Below are positions 16,288 to 32,180 of a stretch of DNA of 64,000 nt, piece by piece. Under the pieces are notes generated by a model. That model had not been told where the DNA came from and did not search any database. It was given only the letters and a program-made list of their open reading frames with translations. Positions within the stretch are counted from its first letter, which is position 1, and each line of letters starts with the position of its first letter. This DNA comes from a virus: IMG/VR virus record IMGVR_UViG_3300020578_000011. One strand, written 5' to 3'. The translations under genes were made by a program, and so were the position numbers.

Positions 16288-16342
16288 ACTAAAATAATAA
16301 TACATAAAAGTATAATATTTATATCTGCAGGAGATTATAAAT

Positions 16343-17724: not shown

Positions 17725-18137
17725 ATGATACTAAAGAAAGATTTGATAAAAAATGCCCACGTCAGTTGAAAGACTATCCTAAGGGATATTGTCCATTAGC
17801 TGTTATTCGCCTAAAATGGCTTAGATCTCTTGGTAGAGAGCCAACTGAAGAAGAAGAACTCAATGCTCCTGGGTGCAATTGGGCAATTAATCATCAAATG
17901 TCTAGTTATTGTTGGTTTGTTTATGAAACAAAATTTATGCCAGATTCTCCTGTATCCGATGTTGAAATAGCTGCTGCTTTAAACATTTCTATAGAAACAG
18001 TAAAACAAGTTGCAGATTCTGCAATGTCAAAAGTGCAATCTTCTGAACTCGTGGTAGAACTAAAGAAGACTTTAGACGGGGAGTCTATCGTTGATGAAGT
18101 TCTCGGAGTTGAAGATGAAGCAATCTATTGCGAATAA
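17721..18137 (+). CDS. Cys-rich protein with sigma70 region 4-like HTH
   Basis: Four Cys, then 'SDVEIAAALNISIETVKQVADSAMSKV'. Confidence 0.6.
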   Translation: MNDTKERFDKKCPRQLKDYPKGYCPLAVIRLKWLRSLGREPTEEEELNAPGCNWAINHQMSSYCWFVYETKFMPDSPVSDVEIAAALNISIETVKQVADSAMSKVQSSELVVELKKTLDGESIVDEVLGVEDEAIYCE

Positions 18138-18381
18138 AGATTTAAAATCTAAAAATCTTCCAGAGATTCAATTAAAAAATCAAGAATTAGAAGAAGATGA
18201 AGAATTAGAAGAAAGTCAAGAATTAGAAGAAGATGAAGAATTAGAAGATTTAGAAGATTTAGATTTAATGAACCCTTCTGATTTTATTGAATTAATAAGC
18301 AATAATTATATATGTAGAAAAAACACTGGAAGATCTAGATTAAAACTCCACCCTAGTAAAATAAATATAAAAAATTACTAG
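18091..18381 (+). CDS. Small acidic repeat protein
   Basis: ORF with a duplicated QELEEDEELEE; start uncertain. Confidence 0.45.
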   Translation: MMKFSELKMKQSIANKDLKSKNLPEIQLKNQELEEDEELEESQELEEDEELEDLEDLDLMNPSDFIELISNNYICRKNTGRSRLKLHPSKINIKNY

Positions 18382-18389
18382 TAATTAAA

Positions 18390-18417
18390 CTAATAAGATC
18401 TGATACAATCTTATTAG
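18390..18417 (+). promoter_or_regulatory. Extended -10 promoter TGATACAAT within a 10-bp inverted repeat
   Basis: CTAATAAGAT-ctgataca-ATCTTATTAG, upstream of the protease SD. Confidence 0.55.
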
Positions 18418-18429
18418 AAAGGGAGTTTT

Positions 18430-19311
18430 ATGGCTACTAAATTTGATGCGGTTGCAGGATCTGAGTTAAGAGACATTCAAGGAGAAATTCTAGATGTCAA
18501 AGGCGCAGATATTTCAGAATTAGAAGCTGGTCAAGGAATTGTTAACGACAACCATAGCAATAAGCTACCCGATGTCATCGGTAGAGTAACTGGTGCAAAA
18601 AAAATATTTAAAGTAGAAGATTGCGAAAGTGATCGTCAAAAATATTTTTGGAATAAAATAAAAGCTCCATATATATATGTTACAGGTGAACTTTTTGACG
18701 ATGAAGACCATAGATCAGCAAGGGCAGCGGCGGCTATATTAAGACATCAGCACAAAACAGATTCTCCACTTAAGCTAAAGTGCTCCGTAGAAGGAGGTAT
18801 AGTAGAAAGAGGCGAGAAAGACGATAGAATTTTAAAAAGAACAAAAATTAAAGGTTTAGCATTGACCTTTACTCCAGCCAATAATGCAACTCTTGTTGAG
18901 GGAGTTGATTTAAATAAAAGCAATAATCCACAAGAATTTGAATTAATAAAATCAATATCTCATCTAGCGAGAAAAGATGTTCCCTCTTTTATAGAAATGG
19001 CTGATACATTATCTGAAATTAAAATATTATCAAATGTAGAAAAAATAAAAGAAACAATATTAACTTTAAAAAAAAATAACATAAATAAAGCATTAGTCGC
19101 TGGATATGGCTCAGCAGGATCTCCGACAAGCCTAACTGGCGGCGGCGTTTTTCAAACTGAATCTATTGATACAAAATCAAATAAAAATCAGTATATAGAA
19201 TGTCCATCATGTGGTAAAGAGCAACCATATGTTGTATATCAAGTTAAATGTCGATCTTGTAATAAGCATTTTCCATTTGACACATTAGCTAAGTTCTTTA
19301 TAAATAAATAG
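18430..19311 (+). CDS. Prohead protease with C-terminal Zn ribbon
   Basis: RDIQGEIL, NDNH, CSVEG (catalytic Ser), LALTFTPAN; C-terminal CPSC...CRSC; lies before scaffold and MCP. Confidence 0.8.
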   Translation: MATKFDAVAGSELRDIQGEILDVKGADISELEAGQGIVNDNHSNKLPDVIGRVTGAKKIFKVEDCESDRQKYFWNKIKAPYIYVTGELFDDEDHRSARAAAAILRHQHKTDSPLKLKCSVEGGIVERGEKDDRILKRTKIKGLALTFTPANNATLVEGVDLNKSNNPQEFELIKSISHLARKDVPSFIEMADTLSEIKILSNVEKIKETILTLKKNNINKALVAGYGSAGSPTSLTGGGVFQTESIDTKSNKNQYIECPSCGKEQPYVVYQVKCRSCNKHFPFDTLAKFFINK

Positions 19312-19411
19312 TTGTAATTAATTGATATTATTAAAGTCACGTTTAACTATAATAATATGGTATATTTAAGTATTGTCGTGGATGGTTTGCATTTGATAAA
19401 AGGAGCAAAAC

Positions 19412-19795
19412 ATGGCTAATTCTGTCCAGGTTCTTGATAAAGTGGCACGAAACCTCAATCAGCTAGGCGTTCCTGCTGTTCGTGGGGCTTCTTCAGTATC
19501 GGCTGCAGGACTTACTATATCTTATGTAAGCGCCTCGGTCCAATCTCCAATGGGTGGCGTTGACAAAGATGCTTCTCCATTTCTTGGTATTGGCGTTGCT
19601 GCGCCAGGTAAATTAAAAATCAAAGGTGCTGCTGGTGAAAATTCACTTGCTGCAATTTTGGACACTGCAGCGGCGGTAAATGTTCTTGCTGTTTGTTCTC
19701 GTTTTGCTAACAATCTCCAGATCGAAGCTGGTGATTCGGCATCAGTTCTTGTAGAACTCGCTGGTCATACAGATCTTTTGATGGTTGGTGAATAA
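19412..19795 (+). CDS. Virion structural protein (possible head decoration)
   Basis: Ala/Gly-rich, strong SD, head operon. Confidence 0.55.
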   Translation: MANSVQVLDKVARNLNQLGVPAVRGASSVSAAGLTISYVSASVQSPMGGVDKDASPFLGIGVAAPGKLKIKGAAGENSLAAILDTAAAVNVLAVCSRFANNLQIEAGDSASVLVELAGHTDLLMVGE

Positions 19796-19813
19796 TATAA
19801 AAGGAGTTTTGCT

Positions 19814-20596
19814 ATGACTACAAAATTAAGCAAAAGTCTCGCCGATCTCATTGATGAAACTCTAGCTGAAATCGAAGAACTAAAAAAGTCTGATCGTTTT
19901 TCTGCTGAAGAAATCGAACTTGGAGAAAAGTCAGCACAAGGCGGAATGGCTAAGGGCGACGAAGAGGACGATGAGAAAGACGAAGACGAAGACGAAGACG
20001 AAGAAGCTAAGAAAGCAGAAGACGACGAAGACGAAGACGACGAAGAGCATGAAGAAGAAGATGAAGCCAAAAAAGCTGAAGAAGAATGCGAAAAAGCAGA
20101 AGCTGAAATGGCCAAGGCTGAAGATGAGTGCGAGAAAGCAGAGCATGCTTATTCAAAAGCGCTTAAAAAGCGTGAGATGTGTAAAGCAGAACTTGAGCAT
20201 AAACTCAAGAAAAAAGAGATGAAAAAACCTCACTGGGCTAAGAAATCAGAAGGTGTCAATCTCATGGTCAAAGAAGAAAAAGAGATGAAGAAGTCACTTG
20301 CAAAATCAATTGACGAAAGAATCTCACCTCTTGAGACCAAACTTTCTCAAGTTTTAGATGTTGTTAAACAACTTGCAGATACCCCATTCCCACAGCGTGG
20401 ACACACGTATCGTCAAATCCAGCCTCTTGCAAAAAGCACTGGAGATGTAGAACCTCTTAATAAGACAGCTGTTCTTAATAAACTTCTTGATCTTAAGAAG
20501 ACTGGAACAGATGTCGATGCTGCAGATGTGATTCGTGTAGAAGTTGGTGGAAATGGTGATCTTAACGAAGTTGCTAACAAATATGGAATTAAATAA
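19814..20596 (+). CDS. Capsid scaffold protein
   Basis: Highly charged E/D/K coiled coil with many xK-S/A sites, directly before the MCP. Confidence 0.7.
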   Translation: MTTKLSKSLADLIDETLAEIEELKKSDRFSAEEIELGEKSAQGGMAKGDEEDDEKDEDEDEDEEAKKAEDDEDEDDEEHEEEDEAKKAEEECEKAEAEMAKAEDECEKAEHAYSKALKKREMCKAELEHKLKKKEMKKPHWAKKSEGVNLMVKEEKEMKKSLAKSIDERISPLETKLSQVLDVVKQLADTPFPQRGHTYRQIQPLAKSTGDVEPLNKTAVLNKLLDLKKTGTDVDAADVIRVEVGGNGDLNEVANKYGIK

Positions 20597-20607
20597 GGAG
20601 AAAAATA

Positions 20608-22062
20608 ATGTACGCTGACGCTTTTAATCAGATTATGCAGGGAATTGAACAAGGAGTGGTCTCTCAAGAAGAGATTGAAAACCTTAATAAGGCACTAGTA
20701 GCGGGATACGGTGGTGCTGGTCGTCCTACTGATCTAACCTATGGCGGTGTTATTCAGACTGAGTCACTTGAATCAACTCTTAAAGTTGTTACATTTGACA
20801 TGAAGAATCTTAAACTCTGGCCAGCAATCACAATCGACAAGGCTTATAACCTATTCGAACAATATAACCGTCTTGTTGGATATGGTTCAGATACTTCGCC
20901 CTATATTGCTGAAGGCGGAGCTGGACAAGAATCAGATTCAACATATGTACGTGACGGACAGCGCATCGTGTTCTTCAGCAAGCGTCGTAAGGTTTCGCAT
21001 CAGATGACTCTTGTTCGCACAACCGTTGGAGACGTTGTAGCTCAACAGGCTAAAGAAGGAACAATGGACCTTCTTAAAGATGTTGAACGTGAACTATACT
21101 GGGGACATGCTCACTTTGCAGATGCATCTGGTGCTCAATCAGGTGCAACAGCTGATCTTCCAGTTAATTCACTTGCCATGAATGGCCTTCTACAACAAAT
21201 CCTTAAGGGTGATCGTGATAGCCAATTTACTTCAAAAGATTTTGAAGGTTGGGGCGCTGAGTCATCATCTGTTGTGAAGGATCTTGCTGGTCTTTCTTTT
21301 GCACAAGACGATGTTGAAGAACTTGCAGTTCGTGCTCTTGAAAATTTCGGAGCTCCAGATCAGCTTCACGCTGAGCCCGCTGCTGTTTCTACATTCGTTC
21401 GTCAATTTTATCCACAGTTCCGTTCTGAACCAGGTCTTGCTGGTCAAACTGTTGGTTATGACGTAGCAAATGTCACCACTACTGCAGGAAAAATTGCACT
21501 TAAACCAAGTCTTTTCCTACGTCCGCGCCAACAAGTTCGTCCAGCAGCTGCTTCAGCTTCTGCTCCTTCTGTTGCGGGTCTAAGTGTTTCTGGAGCTGCT
21601 GCAGGATCAGGATCAGCTCTTTCAGCTGGTAGTTATCATTATGCAGTAACTTTTGTTAATGACTTTGGCGAATCAGCTCCAATTTTAACTTCAGCACCAG
21701 TTTCAGTTACAGCTGGACAAGTTGTTGAATTGACTCTAGCTGGTTCTGTTCCATCTTCTGTCAAGCACATGAAGGTATATCGTGCCGCAAGTGGAGCTGC
21801 AGCTTCAACGGCGCAGTTTATCTCAAATCATCGCGTGGGACTCTCCGCTATTAAAGATGCTGGTGCCAAGCGCCCTGGTCTTGGTGAAGCATTCCTTCTT
21901 GATATGCGTGCTGAAACAATGAAGTTTAAGCAACTTGCTCCTCTTGCTAAGATGAATCTTGCTGTGGTCACAACTGCACTTGAGTTTCTCTTGCTCATGT
22001 ACGGAGCACTATTTGTTTACGCACCGCGATTCAATTGCGTAATGCGAAATGTTGGTAAGTAA
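20608..22062 (+). CDS. Major capsid protein (Herelleviridae-like) with inserted Ig-like domain
   Basis: LNK-ALVAGYG...ESLESTL N-arm (compare VxK-SFTTGYG), EQYNR, ELYWG, QLAPLAKMNLA, LMYGAL..YAP. Insert 'YHYAVTFVNDFGESAP...KVYR'. Confidence 0.9.
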   Translation: MYADAFNQIMQGIEQGVVSQEEIENLNKALVAGYGGAGRPTDLTYGGVIQTESLESTLKVVTFDMKNLKLWPAITIDKAYNLFEQYNRLVGYGSDTSPYIAEGGAGQESDSTYVRDGQRIVFFSKRRKVSHQMTLVRTTVGDVVAQQAKEGTMDLLKDVERELYWGHAHFADASGAQSGATADLPVNSLAMNGLLQQILKGDRDSQFTSKDFEGWGAESSSVVKDLAGLSFAQDDVEELAVRALENFGAPDQLHAEPAAVSTFVRQFYPQFRSEPGLAGQTVGYDVANVTTTAGKIALKPSLFLRPRQQVRPAAASASAPSVAGLSVSGAAAGSGSALSAGSYHYAVTFVNDFGESAPILTSAPVSVTAGQVVELTLAGSVPSSVKHMKVYRAASGAAASTAQFISNHRVGLSAIKDAGAKRPGLGEAFLLDMRAETMKFKQLAPLAKMNLAVVTTALEFLLLMYGALFVYAPRFNCVMRNVGK

Positions 22063-22087
22063 CAAATAGTTAATTTGATTGAATAAT

Positions 22088-22125
22088 ATTAAAACGATCA
22101 GTTAGAAATAGCTGATCGTTTTAAT
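22088..22125 (+). terminator. Intrinsic terminator after the MCP
   Basis: ATTAAAACGATCAGTTA-GAAA-TAGCTGATCGTTTTAAT: a 17-bp stem with a GAAA loop. Confidence 0.85.
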
Positions 22126-22197
22126 TTAATCACAACTAAGATCTGATTGCTAATATAGATGATAAAAAAAACCGAAATATTACTTATCGGTGACATG

Positions 22198-22206
22198 TGG
22201 TACAAT
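22198..22206 (+). promoter_or_regulatory. Extended -10 promoter TGGTACAAT
   Basis: Intergenic, after the terminator and before the SD of the next gene. Confidence 0.55.
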
Positions 22207-22242
22207 AATATTACCCAAGCAAGTGCCTAGGAGATTTAAAGT

Positions 22243-22557
22243 ATGTCACGTCCCATAAACTTACCTGCCGGCTCTTCTAGAACCTCAGACGTTGGTTTGG
22301 TTTGGCGAGAAATAAAAAATGAAACAATTTCTCTTCTCCAGTTTGAGGTTCCAAAATACTGTGCTATAAGAATACATCCAGAAATAGCTGGTTTAAAAGT
22401 ATACTTTGATGGCGAACTAGCTGCAACATTAAAAGTTTCTGAACTCATGTTATTTAACTCCGGCAGAGGATTACCAGATGGCAAAGACACCGTTACACTT
22501 GCGGTAACGGGTGCTTGTCAAATTCAGATTGGTATTGAAATAGATCGCGAAAGGTAA
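22243..22557 (+). CDS. Hypothetical structural protein
   Basis: ORF with AGGAG SD. Confidence 0.7.
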   Translation: MSRPINLPAGSSRTSDVGLVWREIKNETISLLQFEVPKYCAIRIHPEIAGLKVYFDGELAATLKVSELMLFNSGRGLPDGKDTVTLAVTGACQIQIGIEIDRER

Positions 22558-22561
22558 TATT

Positions 22562-23611
22562 ATGTTTTTAGAATCTTTTCGTGATTTATTAAATAAAAAA
22601 ATAGTAAATCAAGAATTAAAAAAAACATTATTAAATACAACAGACTCTATCTTAATTGATCATGTCATAGAGACATTGGAAAAGATGGCTAGACATGCTC
22701 GTCAGTCAGCAAAAGAAAATATTAGTTTATCTAATTTTGTTTCTCAAATGGATCCAGATACAGACCATGCAGAGGCTCATTTTATAAGAGATGCAATGGG
22801 TCATCATGCCTCTCATTATAAGGCAGCTCTACAAGCAGGCAATCAAGATCTTGCAAACACACATGCAAAAGAATTCATTAAACTAGGACATCTTGCTCAT
22901 AAAATAGAGAGAATAGATCCCAGTAAAATGAAATTTGATACAATAGACTTACAACCATGGCAAGCTACCAGATCAGATCTTTTTAGCGATCCCCATAAGA
23001 CAAGTGGAGTAGATTTGACCGGCTGGAGATGTCATAAAAAAATGAAAGGCGGAAAAGACTTTTCCTGGCTTCAGAATCCTCCTCATGCATCTAGATCTAA
23101 TGAGATTTTTTCTAAACCTCATGAGACAATGACAAATCCAGACGGAACCGTTGAGCATCGTTTTCATAATGATGCATTTCCAATGGAGCATGTTAAGATA
23201 AATGGAAAACACATACCTATTGATGACGACATAGATGTTTCTCATGGTCATTTTACACCCCATTCATTTGACATGCATCCAATAATGAGTGTTTTTGACG
23301 AATCTGCCTCTACACATACTCCCGAAAAAGCTTCATCATATCAAGACAGATTATCAAAATTTCATGATTCAGTTTGGGGAAAAAATCTTTTAGCAAAATT
23401 AGGGGAATTTATATCCCCTGAGCATGGAGCAGTCAGAGGCTCGACTGTGCATAAACCAGTTGAAAATCCATTACAAAAACCACAAGACAGAAATACACCA
23501 GCTTCGCTTGATAGCATTGCATCATCAGAAGAACAGAAACACAATGAGAATGTGTCCGATCTTCTTGCTGGTCTAGGTCTTGATAATTCAAATCTAGATG
23601 AAGAAAAATAA
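22562..23611 (+). CDS. His-rich putative internal head protein
   Basis: Head-module ORF with an LEK-M site after a short leader. Confidence 0.55.
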   Translation: MFLESFRDLLNKKIVNQELKKTLLNTTDSILIDHVIETLEKMARHARQSAKENISLSNFVSQMDPDTDHAEAHFIRDAMGHHASHYKAALQAGNQDLANTHAKEFIKLGHLAHKIERIDPSKMKFDTIDLQPWQATRSDLFSDPHKTSGVDLTGWRCHKKMKGGKDFSWLQNPPHASRSNEIFSKPHETMTNPDGTVEHRFHNDAFPMEHVKINGKHIPIDDDIDVSHGHFTPHSFDMHPIMSVFDESASTHTPEKASSYQDRLSKFHDSVWGKNLLAKLGEFISPEHGAVRGSTVHKPVENPLQKPQDRNTPASLDSIASSEEQKHNENVSDLLAGLGLDNSNLDEEK

Positions 23612-23622
23612 CGGAGACAAAC

Positions 23623-24738
23623 ATGCCTGTTGGAGTTATAAAAACAAAAGCAGATCATAAAAAATGGAAAAAAGCAAAAAAGATTGTCGAAGAACAACAC
23701 GGCGAAATACGCTGGCCTTTGGTCATGCACATATATCAACAAATGGCTAAAGATGACGAACCAAAAGATAAAAATGTTTTAATTGAAAGAGCATTAGATA
23801 AACAAGGCAGAAAAGTCGTAATTCCACAAGAGGTTCATGATGTGTTAAAACCAATGTGGGAGAGAGATAAAGATAAATTATTAACACCAGAACAAAAACA
23901 AAAATTAGAATCAATAAAACAAGCAAAACAAAGACGTTCTGAATTTAAAATAGTAAAATCAGCAGAAGAATTAAATTATGTAGAAAGTTCTTTAAAAAAA
24001 ATAAAGCAAGAACTAGATGTTTTTTTTATTTTAGAAAAAGATGAAAAATCTGGATCAGGAGGATGGAAACCACCATCTGGTTTTGACCCCAAGACCCACC
24101 CAGACACAAGCGCATTAATGCTTATTCATGGATTAAATCCACGTGAAGCTTCTTTTATGTCTGGTGCTCATACTTCTAATGAGTATTCTAGAGGTAGGTA
24201 CTTCAGACCAACCCCTCTATCTGAAGGAATGCTTGAACATGCTAAAAGAGTAGCTAAACAAAAATTTGAAGAACATGAGCAAAAAAGAAGAGAAACTGCA
24301 GATCCGGCTCAAAATCCAGATTTATTTTTACAACACAATGCTCAAAGTGTTCACAAGGGATTTAATGGTAATTTTCAAGATGATTTAAAGAATTTTAAAG
24401 AATCTGATGAATTTAAAAATTTATCACAATCTGATAGACCTGGCAGAATCATGCAATGGAAAGCTGATTGGCAAAAACAAAACTTAGAAAATCAAAAACA
24501 ATCAGCCGCAAAAGCAGCTGGACTGCATAGTGAATTGGCAGATCATGCAAACACAGAACGAGCTAAAAAATTAATTGAGCAACGTGAAAACATATTAAGA
24601 GGCGGAGAAGGAGTTTCTGATTCTTCTTTTTCTGATAAGGTTAAAAGAGACACGCCAGATCATAGTGTAGATGAAGATTTAAGCGACGAAGACATGGAAG
24701 ATATAAAAAATCTCGAGGAAGATGATTATGGACGATAA
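23623..24738 (+). CDS. Putative internal head protein
   Basis: N-terminal 'KW.KAK...WPLVMHIYQQM' phage motif; MAK-D, IVK-S and LEK-D sites. Confidence 0.55.
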   Translation: MPVGVIKTKADHKKWKKAKKIVEEQHGEIRWPLVMHIYQQMAKDDEPKDKNVLIERALDKQGRKVVIPQEVHDVLKPMWERDKDKLLTPEQKQKLESIKQAKQRRSEFKIVKSAEELNYVESSLKKIKQELDVFFILEKDEKSGSGGWKPPSGFDPKTHPDTSALMLIHGLNPREASFMSGAHTSNEYSRGRYFRPTPLSEGMLEHAKRVAKQKFEEHEQKRRETADPAQNPDLFLQHNAQSVHKGFNGNFQDDLKNFKESDEFKNLSQSDRPGRIMQWKADWQKQNLENQKQSAAKAAGLHSELADHANTERAKKLIEQRENILRGGEGVSDSSFSDKVKRDTPDHSVDEDLSDEDMEDIKNLEEDDYGR

Positions 24739-25456
24739 TACTATACATAAATATTTAGTAAGTAATTATATGCCATTAATGATTGGTGTTATAAGAAAAA
24801 TGAAAAATAAGGGACTGATACCGCAAGATATGTCTCATTTGAGTCCAGATGAGTTATTTCTTGATCTTTATGAACCAGCTGTTCATGGTTTGATGAAGTC
24901 AATTCATACTTATGATCCTAATAAACTATCTTTAAAAACCGGTAATAAAAAAAGTTTTATAGCACATGCTTGGAGCACGATAAGTGGAATAGTATCCGAT
25001 CATCTTAAAAATAAAAACATAGCATCTGCAGATGTGAATTTAGCTAGAATTAATCAAGCTAAAAAAGAAAACGCATCAACTCAAACTATTGGTATTAAAG
25101 GACAAGGCATAGGTAGAGAGGTAGCAGAACATCTAGGCGGAACTGTTGGAGAAGAAGGAGAGGGGGTCGGTGGAGTTTCAGTTATTAGAAATCCAGAGCA
25201 AGAATTTGCAACAAGACTATCTCCAGAAGCTAAAAATATCCTCCAAGCAAAAATAGATAAAGCAAAAGCTAAACTTGGAGAAAAAACACAAACATCGTCA
25301 GATCAACCACCCGCCTTACCTTCACAGGTAAAGGAACCTTCTTCAACAGAGCCTCAAAAACCAAAGTTAATAATAAGACGCATGGCAAAACCAGATCAAG
25401 TTGATCGCATGGAAAGAATAGATGCTGCAAAAGCAGCATCTAAGAAGCCGGAGTAA
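24728..25456 (+). CDS. Sigma70 region 2-only protein
   Basis: 'LVSNYMPLM...DLYEPAVHGLMKSIHTYDP...SFIAHAWSTISGIVSDHLK' follows the FliA-type region 2 pattern; no region 4. Confidence 0.65.
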   Translation: MDDNTIHKYLVSNYMPLMIGVIRKMKNKGLIPQDMSHLSPDELFLDLYEPAVHGLMKSIHTYDPNKLSLKTGNKKSFIAHAWSTISGIVSDHLKNKNIASADVNLARINQAKKENASTQTIGIKGQGIGREVAEHLGGTVGEEGEGVGGVSVIRNPEQEFATRLSPEAKNILQAKIDKAKAKLGEKTQTSSDQPPALPSQVKEPSSTEPQKPKLIIRRMAKPDQVDRMERIDAAKAASKKPE

Positions 25457-25459
25457 TAA

Positions 25460-26293
25460 ATGTCAATTACAGATTCTCAATACAATCCGCCGTTTCCTCA
25501 TGCTGAGCTGAATCAAGAAACACCTCATCCAGGGCGATATCTATCGCTTCCAACTGCTCAGACTTTAAGAAACACTAGTCTATTTGGAATACCGTTAAGA
25601 TCTTCTTTGACAAATCAAGAAATGAGTGATGCTACTTTAGAAGATTATATTTTAAAATCAATATCTCAATTAGAGCACGAGTTAAACATATTCATAACAC
25701 CTGTTCAATTTGAAGAGCGACATGATTATATTCGTAAGTTGTTTCAAAATTCTTATGCTTTTTTAAAATTAAATAATGCTCCAATTTTAAATGTTCAACA
25801 AGTTAGACTTAGTTTTAGCAACCAACAAGATCCACAACCAGCTTTTATAGAATTTCCATTAGAACATGTTTATGTGGATGCTCAAGAAGGTGGAATAAGA
25901 CTTGTTCCAGCGTATGGGACATCTGTTTCTGGTTTTTTATTATCTGCCTTTGCTGGTGCGCAGATGCATGCTTTAATAGCAGCTGGATTAGATGTTTTTC
26001 CAGGAGCCGTTAGAGTTAGATACAGAGCAGGCTTTGATAAAGATAAGGTGCCTGCTGTTATAGTTGGAATAGTAGAAAAACAAGCAGCATTGTTTGCACT
26101 TACGACAATTGCACCACTCATATTTCCGTATAATTCAGTAAGCATAGGCATAGACGGCGTTAGCCAAGGCGTCGGTACACTTGGGCCTAATTTCTTACAA
26201 GCAAGAATACAGGAACTTCGTCAACAAATACAAGAAGAAAAAGAAGCAGCTAAGACATATTATTTAAAACGTACTTTGATTGATTTTATTTAA
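25460..26293 (+). CDS. Head-tail adaptor/neck protein
   Basis: LEHELNI, ERHDY, VRYRAGF..DKVP, SIGIDGVSQ. Confidence 0.7.
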   Translation: MSITDSQYNPPFPHAELNQETPHPGRYLSLPTAQTLRNTSLFGIPLRSSLTNQEMSDATLEDYILKSISQLEHELNIFITPVQFEERHDYIRKLFQNSYAFLKLNNAPILNVQQVRLSFSNQQDPQPAFIEFPLEHVYVDAQEGGIRLVPAYGTSVSGFLLSAFAGAQMHALIAAGLDVFPGAVRVRYRAGFDKDKVPAVIVGIVEKQAALFALTTIAPLIFPYNSVSIGIDGVSQGVGTLGPNFLQARIQELRQQIQEEKEAAKTYYLKRTLIDFI

Positions 26294-26302
26294 AGGTGTA
26301 AA

Positions 26303-26992
26303 ATGACTGTTAAAAAAAAGTCTAAGAAAATAAATAAAGTTGAGATAAAAAATCCAGATGGTTCTATTTCTAGATACCCAGGTAAAGAACCGCTGATCAA
26401 ACCTAAAAAAGATCTTTCTAAAACAATTTTAGAAAGATGGGAACTTATAAAAGCTGCATTAAATCACGAAGACTCGTTTTTGCCAATGATAAGTCGACAA
26501 GCGGTTGTTGATATGAATAAGACGCCCGAGCAAGATGCCAAAGAGCAAGTGCCAGCGCAGCAAGAACAAGAATCTCAAGAAGACAAGCCTCAAGAAGACA
26601 AACCTCAAGAAGAGCAGCCTCAAGAAGAGCAAGGATCAGACAGCCAAGATCCTGAATACGATGAACAAAAATTAATTGAAATGCTTCAGCAGGAAGGATA
26701 TTCCGATCAGGAAATAGCTCATATAGTTCATGGCCATGTTCCATCTCAACCTTCGCCAGAGGAACTTAAAAATATAGAACAGCATCAAAAACTTAGTCAT
26801 AAAGATGATCTTCATGATGTTACAATTGATCATCAAAAAGCAAACCACGATATAGAGTTGGATCATAAAAAAAGAATGCTAGATCTAGAGCGCGAGCATG
26901 CTAAAAAAGAAAAAGAAATGAGATTAAAGCATTTGGAAGAAGAATTAAAAACAAAATTAGAGCACCTAAAAAATAAACAATCACAACTATGA
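26303..26992 (+). CDS. Putative internal head protein
   Basis: Low-complexity Q/E segment; LSK-T, LIK-A and MNK-T sites. Confidence 0.55.
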   Translation: MTVKKKSKKINKVEIKNPDGSISRYPGKEPLIKPKKDLSKTILERWELIKAALNHEDSFLPMISRQAVVDMNKTPEQDAKEQVPAQQEQESQEDKPQEDKPQEEQPQEEQGSDSQDPEYDEQKLIEMLQQEGYSDQEIAHIVHGHVPSQPSPEELKNIEQHQKLSHKDDLHDVTIDHQKANHDIELDHKKRMLDLEREHAKKEKEMRLKHLEEELKTKLEHLKNKQSQL

Positions 26993-27029
26993 TATTGCTG
27001 TATAATCATATAGTATAAAAAGGTGTCTT

Positions 27030-27983
27030 GTGGAGAGGTTAATTAAATCAAAAAATGGTCAATGGTCATTGATAAAGGTGGCCGATGAAGTTAAAAATAG
27101 AATAGCTGAAAAGGTGTCTAGAATGGCCGAACAAGGTCAGGGAGATGTCAAAGCAAACACCTCAGAAAGCATTTACAACATCCCTAAAGAAGCAAAGGAT
27201 TTCAATCCTCATATTCATTTATTTCATCCCAACGCATCAGATCCTCTTCATAGATTAAATCAAGATGAGTGGCATAGTCATTTTCAAAACATGATGCAAA
27301 ATGATAAATTAAACACTGATCAAATAGATACTCTGGAGGCAGAAAATAAGCGTCGTGACAATGTTATCCACATGGCGAATCAAAAAAAATCAAAAAAACC
27401 AGTCTTTGATCCAAGAGCTATAAAAAGAGGCGAGTCTGATGTAAGATTTGACAATGTAGATTATAAAGTGCGTATAGAAAGAGATTTTGGAGACATAGAT
27501 AGAATGTCTCCCGAAGATAGAGAAAAAATTAAACAACAACACAACCTATCTACAGAAAACATAATGCAAAGAAAAGAACAACAAGAAAAGCAGCAAGCAA
27601 AAAATAAAGAACTTGCAGATAGCCACGCTGCTGAAGTTGAAAGAGTCAAGCATGAAAAGTTTAAAGAAGCTCAAAAATCAATAATGAAAAATTTACCACT
27701 TAACGATAAAAAACAAATGGATGACCTTTATAAAAGAATATCCGGCAGTAAGGATCTTGCAGACAAAATATCAAGATACCTTCACATTGTACATGAAGTC
27801 AAACCAGATGGATCTGTTGCAAATATTTCTTACCATCTTAAAAATCATGCTAGTGAACAGTTAAACGACTTCGTCACATCAATGCGCGGCGACAATGCTC
27901 CGTACACTGAAAATAGATTTGTAGGATTAGACGATGTAAATCCACATGACACACCTAACTTGATTGATAAAAAGGGAGCTTGA
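27030..27983 (+). CDS. Putative head cargo protein with N-terminal KNGQWSL peptide
   Basis: Starts MERLIKSKNGQWSLIK. Confidence 0.6.
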   Translation: MERLIKSKNGQWSLIKVADEVKNRIAEKVSRMAEQGQGDVKANTSESIYNIPKEAKDFNPHIHLFHPNASDPLHRLNQDEWHSHFQNMMQNDKLNTDQIDTLEAENKRRDNVIHMANQKKSKKPVFDPRAIKRGESDVRFDNVDYKVRIERDFGDIDRMSPEDREKIKQQHNLSTENIMQRKEQQEKQQAKNKELADSHAAEVERVKHEKFKEAQKSIMKNLPLNDKKQMDDLYKRISGSKDLADKISRYLHIVHEVKPDGSVANISYHLKNHASEQLNDFVTSMRGDNAPYTENRFVGLDDVNPHDTPNLIDKKGA

Positions 27984-27985
27984 TA

Positions 27986-28534
27986 ATGGAAAAGTTGATA
28001 AAATCAAAAAATGGTCAATGGTCTTTAACAAAAGCAAAAGACTCCTCTGGAGACAACGACAACAACGAGATGCTAATGTCTCAACTTAAGCAGATTGTTC
28101 ACCATGTTAAAGAATTGAATTCAAACATAGATAGATCGGGCAATGAGCCTGATTGGGTAAATGCTAAAATCACAGAGGCAGCAAAAGCATTGTCAGATGT
28201 TGCTCATTATATCGACGGTCTTAAAGATGTTAAAAAGACCGAAGAAATGAAAAAAAATATGAATGATGATATGGAAAAAGAAATAAGAAGATTGCAAGCC
28301 AATAAAGATGCTGCTGGTAACTTTATAAGACCTAGAGTCAAACCCGGTAAAGCAAATAGATTTATGCATGGTGGAGTTCAAGGTTGGAATCTATTTGATG
28401 AAAGAGTAGATGAAAAAATGCAAGGTAAGAAACCTAAAAAAGAGTCAACTGATAAAGCAAAAAGCATTCAACAACCAAATACTAAACCAAAAATAGTAAT
28501 CAGAAGAAAAAAACCTAGCACAACTGAGGAGTGA
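27986..28534 (+). CDS. Putative head cargo protein with N-terminal KNGQWSL peptide
   Basis: Starts MEKLIKSKNGQWSLTK; contains the 'PDWVNAKITEA...VAHY' phage motif. Confidence 0.6.
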   Translation: MEKLIKSKNGQWSLTKAKDSSGDNDNNEMLMSQLKQIVHHVKELNSNIDRSGNEPDWVNAKITEAAKALSDVAHYIDGLKDVKKTEEMKKNMNDDMEKEIRRLQANKDAAGNFIRPRVKPGKANRFMHGGVQGWNLFDERVDEKMQGKKPKKESTDKAKSIQQPNTKPKIVIRRKKPSTTEE

Positions 28535-28537
28535 TTT

Positions 28538-31243
28538 GTGTTTCAGAAGGATGAGGAGACAATCGACGTATTATCGACCCGTCATCTTGGTCTTATTCCA
28601 GAAGGCCATCCTGATCGTAAAAAAATAGCTCAGCATATTAATAATCTAAGAACATCAAATCCAAATGAAGCAAGACGTTTGTATGATCGTTTCATAAGTG
28701 GTGGCGGTAGCTACATCAAAGATAAATCTGAAATTAATATTAAAGTAAATAAATCAGAAAATAATATTAATTTAACTTTAAAAAATCATTTTGAAGGTTC
28801 TTCTACTTCTCCAACTGAGTACCACTATTCGGTTCACAAAAATGGTGATGAAATTGGTCGTGCAATTGTCTTTGATAAAGACCCAAGATCAATACACTCT
28901 CAAGGCAAAGAAGGTGCTTCTTTAAAAGATATAAGAATAAAACCAGAACATCATGGCAAAGGATACTCTGAGCACATAATCAATTCACTTGTTGAAAAAC
29001 ATGGTCCACTTGCGTCCGATAGTAGAGGAAATATATCCGAAGCCGGACATAAGATGTTTAGTAAATATGGTTCTTCAATAAAATCAAAAGAAAATAAAGA
29101 TTTATATATGTTTGGAGGATCTGTGAAAAAATATTTATCTACTGAAAAATTACCTTTGTATTCTGAGTACATAGAACCGCTACAAAAGGGCGAGAAGTTT
29201 CCTCATTTTTTGAATTTCATGGGTAACCACCCTAAAGCTCGAGAAACAGCTCAATGGGTTGATGAAAATATAAAACACAGAAATTTGGCTGAGTTAGCTA
29301 TGCGTCATGCAAAAACTAAGCCAGAGGGTCTTAACGACGAAGAAAAAACTCACATTAAGCACTTTAATGATTCACTGCATATGCCAGAAGTTCAAAAGGC
29401 TGCCGGTTCGATAACAAGTCAGCATGATTTTTCTAGTGGAATTGAGCTATTGAAAGAAGCGGAATCTGCTTATCAAAAAAGACATGCAAAAGAAGCTCCT
29501 ACGTTAGTTTCGACGGAAGGAGAAAAGTTATTAGATTTTGGCGATGGAGTTGGTGTTTATAGACTTCCGTTAAATGCAGACCGTAAAAATAAAAACGAAG
29601 CCACAGCTATGGGCCATTGTGCTACTCCACATAAAGGCGGGGAGTTGTGGTCTATTAGACGTGACCACGGTAATGGAATGGTTGAACCTTTAATATCCAT
29701 ATCGCACGAAGGCGGCTATCTTGGTGAAATGAAAGGAAAACATAATTGGAAGCCATCAGCAAAACATCACGGACATATTGCTAAGTTGTTGGCGTCCGAT
29801 AAAATTAAAGGGTTTGTTGGAGGAGGGTATGCTCCAGAAAGCAACTTTGAAATTTCTGATTTAAGTGAAGGATTTAAGAATAAATTATTAGAATATAAGC
29901 CATCTTTAATTCAAAAAGTTTATAAAGAAAATTTGCCAGAAGGGTTTCAAGGAGACTATAATCATACTCCTGAAATTAAAAGTATTTTTAGTACAAGTGA
30001 TTTAGCTGCTCAACAAAAATATTTAGCAAAAATTAGTGAAAATACGGACCAGCGTAGACGTGTTCTCTGGAGCGCAGCAACAAACCCACACACACACCCA
30101 GACATTCTTCACAAACTAGCAGAAGACTCTGACCAAGATGTTGTCTGGAGCGTATCACATAACCCAAATACACATCCAGATACTCTCCACAAACTAGCAG
30201 AAGACTCTGACTACGGTGTTCTCTGGAGCGTATCAACAAACCCAAATACACATCCAGATACTCTTCACAAACTAGCAGAAGACCCTGGATACGAGTTACG
30301 CGAAAACGTAGCACTACACCCAAATACACATCCAGATACTCTCCACAAACTAGCAGAAGACCCTTATGTTCGCAAAAGCGTAGCAACAAACCCACAATTC
30401 AAAAATTTACCGCTAGAAATACAACAAAAAGTAAGACCACTTGTAAATACACCTATTCAAAAAATTATTGCTATGATTAATGATGGAGAAAATAACCCAG
30501 ACCCTGCTCATGAAGCAACAGAAGAGCTAAAATTACGCCGTCAAGAAAAATACGACAAAATTCTTTCTCCAGAAGGAAACTTAAGTGATATTCAGCATTT
30601 ATCTGAATCACACAATAATAATATTGCAAGACGAGCTAGAAATGAATTAAAACGCAGAGGATTACAAAAATCAGATCTTGAGCATAGTTTAGAATTTGCT
30701 AAAAAATACAAATCTTTAGCCAAGCATGCAGTAGATCAAGGAGACAAAGAAGGTGCTACTAAATATATGAAATCTTTATTAATTCATTTACAAAAAAGTT
30801 ATCAATTTTTAAACAATGAAAGATTTGAAAAATCTCAAAAAAATCACCCTAAAGGTGGTCTTTCTAGAAAAGAAGCTAAAAAACACGGAATACATGCCGG
30901 CATAGAAACACACGATGAAGTTAAGAGAAAAGGTGGAGTAAGCAAACTATCTAACAAAACATCTGCTCGACGTAGAAGTTTTTGTGCTCGCCACTGTGGG
31001 ATGAAGCGCAAGTTTCCTAAAGCATACAAAGATAGGCAGTCAAAAGGAAACAAAGCACTCCGCGTATGGCATTGTGGATCTTGTTCTAATTGGCTTAAGA
31101 AATCAATTGGAGCAGATGATACAATAAAATTCTATGAAGATCAAGACAATTTAATAATAGAATTTGACAATGATGTTCCACATGAAATAGAAACACTTGT
31201 CGTCGCATCTATTCTAGCTAAAGGATTTAAAGAAAATGAATAA
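28538..31243 (+). CDS. Multidomain polyprotein: GNAT-like, PcfJ-like, LRV/HEAT-like repeats, 'RRRSFCAR' (DUF6321-like) domain
   Basis: IKPEHHGKGYS (GNAT motif A); EATAMGHC...WSIR...EMKGKHN; NPNTHPDTLHKLAED repeats; GGL...RRRSFCARHCGMK...NKALRVWHC. Confidence 0.65.
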   Translation: MFQKDEETIDVLSTRHLGLIPEGHPDRKKIAQHINNLRTSNPNEARRLYDRFISGGGSYIKDKSEINIKVNKSENNINLTLKNHFEGSSTSPTEYHYSVHKNGDEIGRAIVFDKDPRSIHSQGKEGASLKDIRIKPEHHGKGYSEHIINSLVEKHGPLASDSRGNISEAGHKMFSKYGSSIKSKENKDLYMFGGSVKKYLSTEKLPLYSEYIEPLQKGEKFPHFLNFMGNHPKARETAQWVDENIKHRNLAELAMRHAKTKPEGLNDEEKTHIKHFNDSLHMPEVQKAAGSITSQHDFSSGIELLKEAESAYQKRHAKEAPTLVSTEGEKLLDFGDGVGVYRLPLNADRKNKNEATAMGHCATPHKGGELWSIRRDHGNGMVEPLISISHEGGYLGEMKGKHNWKPSAKHHGHIAKLLASDKIKGFVGGGYAPESNFEISDLSEGFKNKLLEYKPSLIQKVYKENLPEGFQGDYNHTPEIKSIFSTSDLAAQQKYLAKISENTDQRRRVLWSAATNPHTHPDILHKLAEDSDQDVVWSVSHNPNTHPDTLHKLAEDSDYGVLWSVSTNPNTHPDTLHKLAEDPGYELRENVALHPNTHPDTLHKLAEDPYVRKSVATNPQFKNLPLEIQQKVRPLVNTPIQKIIAMINDGENNPDPAHEATEELKLRRQEKYDKILSPEGNLSDIQHLSESHNNNIARRARNELKRRGLQKSDLEHSLEFAKKYKSLAKHAVDQGDKEGATKYMKSLLIHLQKSYQFLNNERFEKSQKNHPKGGLSRKEAKKHGIHAGIETHDEVKRKGGVSKLSNKTSARRRSFCARHCGMKRKFPKAYKDRQSKGNKALRVWHCGSCSNWLKKSIGADDTIKFYEDQDNLIIEFDNDVPHEIETLVVASILAKGFKENE
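30062..30398 (+). repeat. About 4.5 coding tandem repeats of 78 nt (26-aa LRV-like)
   Basis: Units start at 30062, 30140, 30218, 30296 and 30368. Confidence 0.9.
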
Positions 31244-32180
31244 AGAATTAATAGAACTTTATAAATCAAAACCAGAACTAATAGACGAGCACAAGAAACT
31301 TGTTCAAGTTCTTCGCCACGGCACCGATACTGAACAAAAAAAAGAAGCAGAACGTCAGCTAAAAGAACTTAAAGAAATGTTAAATAAAGAAGAGAAAAAC
31401 TCTGATGATAAAAAAACACACTTGTCTACAGATGGAAAAACCTTTATCAATGGTTCTAGCATTAAAAAAATCTTAGATAGAGGGGTGAAGAATGGAGTGC
31501 AAACAAGAACATATGAAATGCATGATGGATCTGTAAAAGAAGCATACTTTCCCCACTATGAAGAATTAAAAAATTCTCCTAATCATTATCAATTAAGTAA
31601 ACTAACTAAAGAAGAATTAGAAAAAAGATGCTGGGAAGGATACAGACCCGTTGCCGGTAAAAAGCCGTATGAAAAGGGCTCTTGCGAACCTGTGTCAAAG
31701 CAAGAAGTGTTAAAAATAGAAAAAAATGGCCAATGGTCTCTTGATAAGAGCAATAATATAAAACCTTTTGGTGAAAATATATTTGATACTACAGCAAATA
31801 TTCAAAGAAAAGCTAAAAGACTTGGTGAGGTTCAAGAAGGAGTGGGTGCTAATCAAGCTGTTCATCCGTTCACAGGCCTTTGAGGAACTGCTAATGAACA
31901 AGCAAAAAGAAAATCTCAAGAAGACATTGAACAAAGCAAGAAAAAAGTAACTTCATACGATTTTTCTGGCGTCAAGCCAGAGCACCATGCTCAGGTTGTG
32001 GAAAGAATCAAAGCAGGAGAGGGTATCGAGACTTTATCTGAACTTGGTTTGAAACAAATTATAAGCGATTCTGCTAGTGTTAAAAGAAAAGAAAAAGCTA
32101 GTAGAAAAAGAAAAAATAAATCAATTGATTTAGGTGTTCTAAAACTTAAAAAAAAGAAAAAACCTAAAAATAATATATGA
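31236..32180 (+). CDS. Putative head cargo protein (CWxGY and KNGQWSL motifs), interrupted by an in-frame TGA at 31881-31883
   Basis: CWEGYRPVAGKKPYEKGSC and EVLKIEKNGQWSLDKS. The frame stays open for a further 98 sense codons after the TGA. Confidence 0.65.

Follow-up and report, generated by a model that had tools for sequence, protein, structure and literature searches.

A putative capsid-type lysine cleavage signal in candidate internal head proteins of an uncultured phage with an SPO1-type capsid protein

The window, a 64,000-nucleotide stretch of virus DNA (IMG/VR record IMGVR_UViG_3300020578_000011), corresponds to the head module of an uncultured phage of ~150 kb whose capsid protein is of the SPO1 type. 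The parts mapped below all lie on the + strand. The major capsid protein (MCP), a homolog of SPO1 gp6.1 (E 1.3e-54), starts with a 28-residue leader (20608–20691) ending in EIENLNK-ALVAGYG (K28); all 68 orthologs share its LxK-A without exception. The site aligns with DALNK-ALEAGH of SPO1 gp6.1 and DVVK-SFQTGYG of Staphylococcus phage phi812. The 439-residue phi812 capsid protein sequence of 9row begins at S25, after K24 of the 463-residue 5lii sequence, and K28-A29 of the window is in register with K24-S25. This alignment backs the first-pass annotation, which had invoked Herelleviridae-type maturation after lysine; by homology, the MCP is probably processed in the same way. As differences from SPO1-type (Herelleviridae-like) phages, the MCP is only ~31% identical to those of cultured phages, and a search of two complete relatives gave no confident tail sheath.

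Similar signals occur in three further head proteins. We scored a broad motif, [LMIVF]xK[SAGD], taken from the first-pass annotation, and a tighter one, [LM]xK[SA], with composition-preserving shuffles as background. The portal leader (14344–14415) contains LKK-S (K9) and ends in IEQMTK-A; the latter site (K24) is retained in 46 of 53 orthologs with a variable P2 residue (LLKA, LMKA, LTKS). The prohead protease (18430–19311; phrog_1028, E 1.2e-15; no Pfam or PDB sequence match) is a minimal 293-residue form. Its domain of ~215 residues carries LNK-S (K163) and LIK-S (K174) and is followed by INK-ALVAGYG (K220), which reproduces the MCP site together with the N-arm, and a Zn ribbon; the three sites are retained in 51–55 of 60 orthologs. 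A scaffold-like acidic protein (19814–20596) has eight broad-motif sites where 2.25 are expected (P 0.003), LSK-S, LKK-S and LAK-S among them. K7, K25 and K207 are kept in 16–18 of 18 orthologs, and LxK[SA] is 11-fold over expectation family-wide. Most likely, the protease cuts after the lysine of Leu/Met-x-Lys-Ser/Ala/Gly. Homology and conservation suggest that it would strip the capsid protein and the portal of their short leaders, fragment the scaffold and trim its own C-terminus.

The genes at 22562–32180, downstream of the capsid gene, have the same orientation as the head genes and are tightly packed with them. The earlier proposal that all of them encode cargo cut by the protease is not supported for two. 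ORF 22562–23611, a conserved His-rich head-module protein with orthologs in 52 loci and no family or PDB match, has zero hxK[SAGD] sites. It may instead have a leader ending in IETLEK-MA (K41), in which L39 and K41 never vary among orthologs and M42 hardly does. ORF 25460–26293 is a head–tail adaptor or neck protein (phrog_772, E 3e-32; phrog_442 ‘head-tail adaptor’, E 3e-6) and is ruled out as cargo; its 31 orthologs are devoid of LxK[SA], where 4.1 would be expected. Conserved sites are present in two neighbors. In ORF 23623–24738, a candidate internal head protein, IVK-S (K112) is kept in four of five and LEK-D (K139) in all five orthologs at ~35% identity, against a background lysine conservation of 0.36. 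In ORF 26303–26992, an acidic low-complexity protein with WELIK-A, K50 is a lysine in 12 of 12 orthologs and the motif is intact in 6 of 12, relatives at 27% identity included.

A peptide tag occurs three times in the window. MERLIK-SKNGQWSLIK-V (27030–27077) forms the N-terminus of ORF 27030–27983, and MEKLIK-SKNGQWSLTK-A (27986–28033) that of ORF 27980–28534, where LIK-S is kept and most orthologs have LxK-A/G. The third copy, EVLKIEKNGQWSLDK-S (residues 157–171, nucleotides 31704–31748), is internal to ORF 31236–31883, a mosaic protein that also comprises LYK-S (K10), a CWEGY...GSCEP module and a degenerate SNYGPKG-type module. The KNGQWSLxK tag ends in LxK-S/A/V, and in relatives it forms the N-terminus of different proteins; in locus L048 it stands before the PcfJ-like domain described below. 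Of the 11 distinct, unrelated contexts of the SNYGPKG module, 10 have hxK in front of it.

The longest product, of 901 residues (28538–31243), lacks the NGQW tag. Its N-module (residues 1–72; 28538–28753) has three helices and the signature IPEGHPDR...EARRLY, ends in VNK-S and recurs in relatives, twice in P0008/P0009 and also within the protease polyprotein of L041. The following module (73–217; 28754–29188), ending in IEPLQK-G, had been called GNAT-like. The label finds some backing in its 47% identity to part of P0011, which also has a bona fide GNAT, but its match to Pfam Acetyltransf_1 (E 0.02) scores 15.5 bits, below the cut-off of 20.7. Next comes an alpha/beta domain with an invariant His-Cys (218–485; 29189–29992) and 1523 relatives among representative proteins. 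The name ‘PcfJ-like’ is a language-model lead (an Atlas link to PcfJ clusters at 0.94) with no Pfam match or HMM support; the AF2 model has a pLDDT of 89.9, and its likeness to the acetyltransferase fold is weak (Z 4–5.8). The LRV/HEAT-like repeats and helical tail (486–711; 29993–30670) end in RRGLQK-S, and the repeats match PF01816 (E 6.7e-15). A linker (712–765; 30671–30832) with LQK-S (K753) and FEK-S (K765) leads to a DUF6321-like Cys-rich module (766–855; 30833–31102; PF19846, E 2e-5, below cut-off; phrog_4689, E 2e-8) ending in WLKK-S. The small C-terminal module (856–901; 31103–31240) is conserved with P0008/P0009 to residue 899. Overall, the enzyme assignments of these modules are weak.

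The sites quoted in the first-pass annotation for the MCP, portal, scaffold, protease and 901-residue protein are all present, in the last case VNK-S (K72), LQK-G (K217), LQK-S (K711, K753), FEK-S (K765) and LKK-S (K855). It had placed them at domain borders and had omitted six further broad-motif matches (K4, K114, K287, K613, K828 and K895). Six of the 12 sites fall within 5 residues of the ends of homology blocks, against 2.2 expected for random lysines (P ~0.01). K287 and K613 lie within confidently modeled folds, and K114 and K828 within homology-defined modules. K711 and K753 are in predicted helices of a low-confidence model (pLDDT 56.7).

Motif counts give a mixed picture. The broad motif is enriched in the portal, protease, scaffold and MCP taken together (20 versus 9.3 expected, P 0.0015) and in the 901-residue protein (12 versus 5.6, P 0.007), but not in the other nine ORFs of 22562–32180 (14 versus 14.8) or in that region as a whole (26 versus 20.4, P 0.12). 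The motif had been said to recur in these ORFs; among them, only the 901-residue protein has more copies than its composition predicts. Chance would account for about half of the broad-motif matches. The tighter motif is enriched 5.6-fold in the four head proteins and 2.2-fold in the region (P 0.019), but also 2.05-fold in the replication proteins used as control (P 0.017), and counts do not separate the region from this control. A position-specific scoring matrix built from eight conserved head sites did not rank the region’s sites above false positives. By contrast, IEx[LM]xK occurs six times against 0.89 expected, always within 14344–31243 and five times at residues 20–41, although the IETLEK match in ORF 17179 is not conserved.

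These numbers bear on whether the proteins are ordinary, uncleaved late products, rich in lysine, in which a loose hxK[SAGD] pattern arises by chance and L-x-K-S/A is generally favored. The twofold excess in replication proteins, the region’s count once the 901-residue protein is removed, the matches inside folded or homology-defined modules and the unconserved site in ORF 17179 would all fit. We nevertheless consider this explanation quite unlikely. The positions of the motif stay conserved where its middle residue and flanks change, and the adaptor family and that of ORF 19412 (0 versus 5.2 expected) are devoid of LxK[SA]. Furthermore, junctions of shuffled modules coincide with sites, and relatives embed modules in their protease ORFs between two such sites. 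The case for cargo is partly supported and rests on comparison with relatives; motif counts alone decide nothing, because the replication proteins come so close to the region.

Homologs of the 901-residue protein are mosaics, with blocks spanning residues 207–712 and 765–851, and LxK-S/A/G is retained at the borders of the swappable modules. At the N-border of the PcfJ-like domain the junctions read EPLQK-G, EELEK-S and ETMQK-S. Six mosaic homologs lose homology at 712/713, directly after a conserved LxK-S/A (RRGLQK-S, RRNLIK-A/S or GLRK-S). Homology blocks to P0008–P0016 begin at 750–768 (FEK-S or VLK-S), and P0008 has LKK-S and VLK-S at equivalent places; blocks to the DUF6321-like module stop at 851, near WLKK-S. 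The codons at the sites vary, and the constraint is therefore on the peptide rather than on a DNA junction.

The site at the N-border of the PcfJ-like domain is present in 37 of 57 distant representatives, including stand-alone proteins starting with MELLLK-S or MEILAK-A, and LxK-S/G is so widespread there that it may simply belong to the domain itself. More generally, LxK-S/A/G might be a module-boundary or linker signature unrelated to the prohead protease. It could cap the N-terminus of PcfJ-like and SNYGPKG modules, or be cut by a different protease, of host or phage, either in the cytoplasm or once injected; polyvalent proteins are said in PMC5512222 to be processed by peptidase domains that they themselves contain. 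A signature of this kind is very unlikely in our view, as the signal is that of MCP maturation, is common to different unrelated modules and flanks protease-ORF inserts that end in an MCP-mimic site. In addition, PHROG and Pfam family searches found no peptidase domain in the candidate cargo ORFs.

Protease ORFs at 80 loci vary in length between 284 and 1007 residues with both ends constant, and relatives carry inserts of 100–700 residues between the protease domain and the C-terminal MCP-mimic site. In L009, L017-19, L041 and L057 the ORF encodes 934–1007 residues in the order protease domain, LxK-S sites, LEK-A, PcfJ-like domain, HEAT/LRV repeats, LNK-ALTAGYGG and Zn ribbon. Other inserts include a GNAT domain above the Pfam cut-off (PF00583, 21.2 bits) and, as a lead only, an SLT-like domain. 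PcfJ-like/HEAT, GNAT-like and SLT-like modules thus all occur inside prohead-protease ORFs of related phages.

Taken as a whole, the data are somewhat better explained than not by a Lys-type prohead protease acting on internal head proteins, some of them polyproteins cut at the capsid-type signal; the mosaic multi-module proteins probably enter the head and are separated into their modules inside it. The polyprotein interpretation is carried by part of the region (mosaic borders, protease-ORF modules, SNYGPKG contexts) but not by ORFs 22562 and 25460 or the motif counts. Comparative anatomy suggests that the products of 23623, 26303, 27030, 27980, 28538–31243 and 31236 would be internal head proteins, drawn into the prohead by MEKLIKSxNGQWSLxK as N-terminal tag or by a helical module at the N-terminus, and would be cut at the same signal as the capsid protein. 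The 901-residue product would be a polyvalent protein, released as separate N-module, GNAT-like, PcfJ-like plus LRV/HEAT, DUF6321-like and C-module pieces. Speculatively, the pieces may exit together with the DNA; acyltransferase or cell-wall enzyme activity would be examples of what they could do in the host.

Alternatively, the protease sites may be real and the proteins may serve as core or scaffold-like assembly factors that would organize the prohead and be degraded or inert rather than delivered to the host. Site density is indeed highest in the scaffold, several of the products (that of ORF 26303 for one) are acidic and of low complexity or form coiled coils, and HEAT/LRV repeats are binding, not catalytic, modules. 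In L082, an array of paralogous PcfJ-plus-repeat proteins follows a scaffold-like gene, reminiscent of phiKZ-type inner-body paralogs. Yet folded modules of 250–700 residues would be too large for peptide exit from the capsid, the GNAT and SLT-like inserts are typical of infection enzymes, and extensive mosaicism better fits conflict-driven effectors. We regard a pure assembly role as unlikely.

The proposed system would be a Lys-type variant of T4- and phiKZ-style processed head proteins and of polyvalent proteins; the literature searched yielded no description of processed cargo polyproteins for Herelleviridae. Polyvalent proteins of phages and conjugative elements (Iyer, Burroughs, Anand, de Souza and Aravind 2017; PMC5512222) likewise combine several unrelated domains per polypeptide, show extensive mosaicism, are encoded beside virion genes and are predicted to be packaged and delivered with DNA. 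Their release, however, was proposed to occur via embedded peptidase (MPTase) domains, whereas the junctions here carry the capsid maturation signal, and the domain set here (PcfJ-like, LRV/HEAT, DUF6321, small Cys-rich) is different, PcfJ and LRV being absent from that text. The protease of phiKZ, 201phi2-1 and SPN3US (gp175/gp245) cuts many head proteins, including the portal, MCP and abundant internal or ejection proteins. It also cleaves off the propeptide at its own C-terminus, and some propeptides undergo more than one cut (PMC10052503). In contrast to the signal here, its motif is A-x-E, and its cleavages strip N-terminal propeptides rather than separate polyvalent-protein modules; that work makes no mention of cargo modules within the protease gene. 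As with T4 IPI-III and Alt, processed by the gp21 prohead protease (the role of T4 propeptides is summarized in PMC10052503), a short N-terminal peptide ending in a cleavage signal heads otherwise unrelated proteins encoded alongside the head genes, and one cleavage rule is predicted to serve capsid protein, scaffold and cargo. The signal differs (Leu-x-Lys-Ser/Ala here, Leu/Ile-x-Glu in T4), as do the capsid protein (SPO1-type rather than gp23-type) and the candidate cargo, which is multi-module and mosaic here. Compared with the T4 capsid-targeting sequence, the tag here is longer and a different peptide (KNGQWSLxK).

The window reads as a phage. It encodes replication proteins (DNA polymerase, SSB, UvsX-like and SbcD-like), collagen-like and beta-propeller fibre proteins, and a head module on the plus strand in which a terminase-containing 1129-aa ORF is followed by the portal (14344-16287), a prohead protease (18430-19311), an acidic scaffold-like protein (19814-20596) and the major capsid protein (MCP; 20608-22062). 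The ten co-oriented, closely packed ORFs at 22562-32180, hereafter the region, are contiguous with the portal, protease, scaffold, MCP and adaptor genes on the same strand. In the 1129-aa ORF (10924-14313), matches to the terminase large-subunit nuclease are confined to residues ~890-1057, with an HNH-endonuclease-like N-terminus and helicase-like matches between, so that the gene is an unusually long or composite terminase gene. Our comparative material was a set of 80 related loci on IMG/VR contigs of up to 177 kb, whose MCPs are 62-83% identical to that of the window. A tail sheath (PF04984), sought in three relatives, gave a single sub-threshold match.

The MCP is of the SPO1 type. It matched Gp6.1 of SPO1 (PDB 9vel, E 1.3e-54), the phi812 MCP (5lii and 9row, E 3e-6 and 2.5e-5) and phrog_752 (E 1e-58), at an identity of only ~31% to SPO1-like Bacillus phages. 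The literature searched yielded no usable published cleavage rule for Herelleviridae, and PDB sequences were used for the MCP site in its place. HMMER aligned IENLNK↓ALVAGYG of the window (the arrow marks the presumed cut) to DALNK-ALEAGH of SPO1 gp6.1 (9vel) and to QEDVVK↓SFQTGYG of phi812, placing K28↓A29 in register with K24↓S25 of phi812. The 439-aa 9row sequence begins exactly at S25 of the 463-aa 5lii sequence, a start that we read as the mature N-terminus after K24. The MCP site L-[NQT]-K↓A is invariant in 68 orthologs. Portal K24↓A is kept in 46 of 53 orthologs with a variable middle residue, protease K163, K174 and K220 (K220↓ALVAGYG) each in 51-55 of 60, and scaffold K7, K25 and K207 in 16-18 of 18; for Lys in general, conservation in these alignments is 0.43-0.74. 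Across the family, where the sequences are related and hence not independent, LxK[SA] exceeds expectation 11-fold in scaffolds, 4.8-fold in proteases and 2.8-fold in portals, and is absent from 31 adaptor orthologs (25460-26293; 4.1 expected) and 63 orthologs of ORF 19412 (19412-19795; 5.2 expected). This absence may represent avoidance of the protease signal in proteins that need to stay intact in the head. Homology and conservation provide good support for the rule we infer, by which the protease would cut after the Lys of L/M-x-K↓S/A/G. The protease itself matched only phrog_1028; searches against Pfam and PDB sequences returned no match.

The first-pass annotation had read the region as packaged polyproteins cut at [LMIVF]xK[SAGD] sites, and all the sites it quoted are present. 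It proposed counting the motif as a check. Measured against composition-preserving shuffles, enrichment over the Lys-rich background held for portal, protease, scaffold and MCP taken together (20 versus 9.3 expected, P 0.0015) and for the 901-aa ORF at 28538-31243 (12 versus 5.6, P 0.007), but not for the whole region (26 versus 20.4, P 0.12), whose other nine ORFs hold 14 sites versus 14.8 expected. Nor did a comparison with replication proteins separate the region: the tighter motif [LM]xK[SA] is enriched 5.6x in the four head proteins, 2.2x in the region and 2.05x in the replication proteins. Because this control also reaches about 2x, counts from one genome cannot tell the region from it, and we dropped them as proof. 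The reverse-motif and Arg controls were flat. Chance, as the origin of the region's sites, draws its support from these counts; the positions of sites within the 901-aa ORF, described below, depart from those of random lysines. The hexapeptide IEx[LM]xK, which we picked post hoc once the head sites were known, occurs six times versus 0.89 expected, always within 14344-31243. Five copies lie at residues 20-41 (portal, ORF 17179, scaffold, MCP and ORF 22562) and the sixth at K217 of the 901-aa ORF. Two candidates were discarded here: the IETLEK↓H leader of ORF 17179, found in only 11 of 52 orthologs, and a PSSM (P6-P4') built from eight conserved head sites, which was overfitted and ranked replication-protein lysines among the region's sites.

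Homologs of the 901-aa ORF are mosaics. Those we labelled P0002-P0016 hold different subsets of its modules: six match only residues ~207-712, and others only 750/765-851/899, 9-53 or 28-198. With five or more modules, at least two unrelated domains and mosaic relatives, and encoded by the phage beside virion genes, the ORF has the makeup of a polyvalent protein. The junction peptides are kept as a pattern though the neighboring modules change. Upstream of the PcfJ-like module (aa 218-485) stands EPLQK↓G (window, P0003/4), EELEK↓S (P0002, P0005/6) or ETMQK↓S (P0007). The repeat/helical module (aa 486-711) is followed by RRGLQK↓S, RRNLIK↓A, RRNLIK↓S, GLRK↓S or NLQK↓S and then by unrelated sequence, and the DUF6321-like module (aa 766-855) is preceded by FEK↓S or VLK↓S and closed by WLKK↓S. 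The Leu, Lys and Ser codons vary between sites, and a fixed DNA junction such as a recombination signal was rejected for this reason. Half of the 12 lysines in broad-motif sites are no more than 5 residues away from where a homology block ends, compared with 2.2 for random lysines (P about 0.01); the other half match the chance level (5.6 expected). K287 and K613 fall inside confidently modelled folds, and K114 and K828 inside homology-defined modules. The full-length AF2 model (pLDDT 56.7) is too poor for placing all sites.

The 'GNAT-like' label of aa 73-217 of the 901-aa ORF has a PF00583 match behind it (15.5 bits, E 0.02) that stays below the Pfam gathering cut-off of 20.7. For the 'PcfJ-like' module the PF14284 HMM gave no backing, with no match at E up to 0.5 for aa 218-485 or at E up to 0.001 in 50 relatives, and the only papers retrieved for PcfJ concerned pCFJ plasmids of C. 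elegans; an Atlas language-model feature search offered viral PcfJ clusters, at 0.94, as a lead. This module has an invariant His-Cys, matches no Pfam model and counts 1523 representative relatives, in proteins of 300-3100 aa and usually with HEAT/LRV repeats after it. Its AF2 model (pLDDT 89.9) contains an alpha/beta core with a weak likeness to the acetyltransferase fold (Z 4-5.8, VIA-align), and Foldseek against the PDB found nothing at E <= 0.001. Its N-border carries [LMIV]xK[SAGT] in 37 of 57 distant representatives, among them stand-alone proteins that begin MELLLK↓S or MEILAK↓A. This recurrence fits a mini-leader cut off by the protease. The rival explanation is that the boundary motif is unrelated to the prohead protease, and the same recurrence in distant proteins speaks for it insofar as the signal could belong to the domain itself as a cap. 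In L082:8563-23015, from a distant 160-kb phage, a scaffold-like ORF has six LxK↓S sites versus 0.6 expected, and behind it lie at least four paralogous proteins of 833-1578 aa with a PcfJ-like domain plus repeats. Three of these open with VEKLAK↓A (the start codon is GTG, read as Met) and finish with APLTK↓S and a basic tail.

Three other ORFs of the region, with products otherwise unrelated, share a short peptide, the NGQW tag ME[RK]LIK↓SKNGQWSLxK↓, at 27030-27077 (ORF 27030), 27986-28033 (ORF 27980) and 31704-31748 (inside ORF 31236); the candidate targeting sequence is MEKLIKSKNGQWSLTK. In relatives the tag heads or precedes varied proteins and ends in L-x-K, with a mostly small residue next, and KNGQWSLxK is probably a capsid-targeting tag. 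A conserved module, SNYGPKG...LY..DN.KRK, has [LMIV]xK directly before it in 10 of 11 distinct contexts, among them NGQW tags, unrelated linkers and Cys-rich segments. In orthologs of 27-37% identity, two sites of ORF 23623 and one of ORF 26303 are retained. Two ORFs drop out of the proposed set: ORF 25460, a homolog of head-tail adaptors (phrog_772, E 3e-32), is not cargo, and ORF 22562 has no S/A/G/D site. The latter (22562-23611) encodes a conserved His-rich protein with orthologs in 52 loci. Six of its His are invariant and a seventh is nearly so, as is ESLEK↓MA at residues 37-43. It has no family match, and its family profile found nothing in the PDB either; the product may belong to the head, bind metal and carry a leader of 41 aa.

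ORF 27980 stops at a TGA and the 901-aa ORF resumes in the same frame 3 nt on (28532-28540), with its own GAGGAG Shine-Dalgarno and GTG start. Beyond the TGA of ORF 31236 (31881-31883) the frame stays open for 98 codons and includes a basic tail, and orthologs are uninterrupted. Readthrough at the two TGA codons would give tagged fusions; the alternative is coincidence. A C-terminal peptide, KPK[LIV][IV]IRR, closes ORF 24722 (25358-25456) and ORF 27980 (28484-28531), extended by AKPDQxDRMxRIDAAK in ORF 24722 only. In loci L006-L009 it closes a fused 23623+24722-like protein directly before the adaptor gene.

The strongest evidence for a cargo function, as far as sequence comparison can indicate one, comes from modules embedded in protease ORFs. 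In the 80 loci the length of the protease ORF varies between 284 and 1007 aa: both ends are constant and the middle is variable. The window has a minimal 293-aa form, and its modules lie in separate ORFs. In loci L009, L017-19, L041 and L057 the ORF reaches 934-1007 aa (L009:5015-8038, L017:5756-8560, L041:5772-8744, L057:5231-8071). A protease domain of ~215 aa, two LxK↓S sites and a linker ending (E)xLEK↓A precede a PcfJ-like domain and HEAT/LRV repeats, and the C-terminal end consists of LNK↓ALTAGYGG, which copies the site and N-arm of the MCP, and a Zn ribbon. The L041 ORF also holds the N-module of the 901-aa ORF (aa 1-72). Further inserts comprise a GNAT domain in L033 (PF00583, 21.2 bits, above the cut-off), a GNAT-like motif recognized by eye in L040, and TM segments. 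Sixteen distinct protease-ORF sequences carry an insert with an invariant ESSGG...GGMFGMMP and a hydrophobic segment (L049:7688-8272 and 15 other loci; alignment A3). To the eye, and in an Atlas lead to SLT clusters at 0.93, this insert resembles a lytic transglycosylase; Pfam, PHROGs and PDB sequence and profile searches for SLT were all negative. The same kinds of module thus occur in three settings: flanked by signals in a protease polyprotein, behind an NGQW tag (locus L048), and in a polyvalent ORF after the capsid gene. This would be hard to explain unless the modules are prohead passengers.

Taken with their conservation, the mosaic junctions and protease fusions we observe lend moderate support to the view that the prohead takes up the products of the 901-aa ORF and of the tagged ORFs, and that these are cut at LxK junctions. 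That the pieces are ejected along with the DNA and act as enzymes in the host is speculative, and internal proteins serving assembly only would be the rival to this last step. Prohead entry with Lys-type cutting resembles, in part, known systems. The NGQW tag would be like the capsid-targeting sequence of T4 with its gp21 processing, in that a short shared peptide ends in a putative protease site; T4, however, has gp21-type Leu/Ile-x-Glu signals and a gp23-type capsid, whereas here L-x-K↓S/A accompanies an SPO1-type MCP. In phiKZ and SPN3US, head and ejection proteins are AXE-processed, with cleavage after A/S/G-x-Glu (PMC10052503), whereas the conserved sites here end in Lys. The phiKZ/SPN3US protease trims its own C-terminal propeptide and has the portal and internal proteins as substrates; the conserved protease K220↓ALVAGYG and portal K24↓A would be candidate counterparts here. 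Because signal, capsid lineage and tag all differ, the region belongs to neither the T4 nor the phiKZ system. The polyvalent protein concept fits the region's proteins, but the embedded peptidases (MPTase) proposed for such proteins (Iyer et al. 2017, PMC5512222) are lacking: no region ORF has a Pfam or PHROG match to MPTase or to hallmark domains such as MuF. The window would represent a Lys-type, SPO1-capsid variant of processed head cargo in which the protease gene serves as a variable cargo slot.

A more far-reaching mechanism, which we regard as possible though rather doubtful, is a portable 'address-and-cut' grammar. The tag MEKLIKSxNGQWSLxK would bring whatever module is attached to it into the capsid; alternatively, a module would enter by way of a slot in the gene of the prohead protease, flanked by the protease domain on one side and a decoy MCP cleavage site and N-arm on the other. 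The Lys-specific protease would then release the inserted module, and a host-takeover kit of rapidly shuffled enzymes (acyltransferase-like, PcfJ-like/HEAT, lytic transglycosylase-like) would be injected. If so, the protease gene itself would be a site for cargo cassettes, and chosen proteins could be packaged by reuse of the grammar.

Head-carried phage proteins decide the first minutes of infection and, to our knowledge, are known from few model phages only (T4, P1, N4, phiKZ-like). If the cargo reading is right, a head-cargo strategy that rests on a different capsid lineage and a Lys-type protease operates in a large family of environmental phages (80 related contigs, genomes up to about 177 kb). 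Two features would be readable, signals at the borders of swappable modules and the protease gene as an insertion slot, and head cargo would become predictable from sequence in uncultured phages. The PcfJ-like domain, with its many relatives, would then be a virion-delivered family of unknown function. Gene orientation within the head module differs in one subgroup: in L033, L043, L044 and L068 (loci minus strand), the protease gene and the NGQW-tagged gene following it lie on the strand opposite the MCP, which suggests an inverted block inside the head module.
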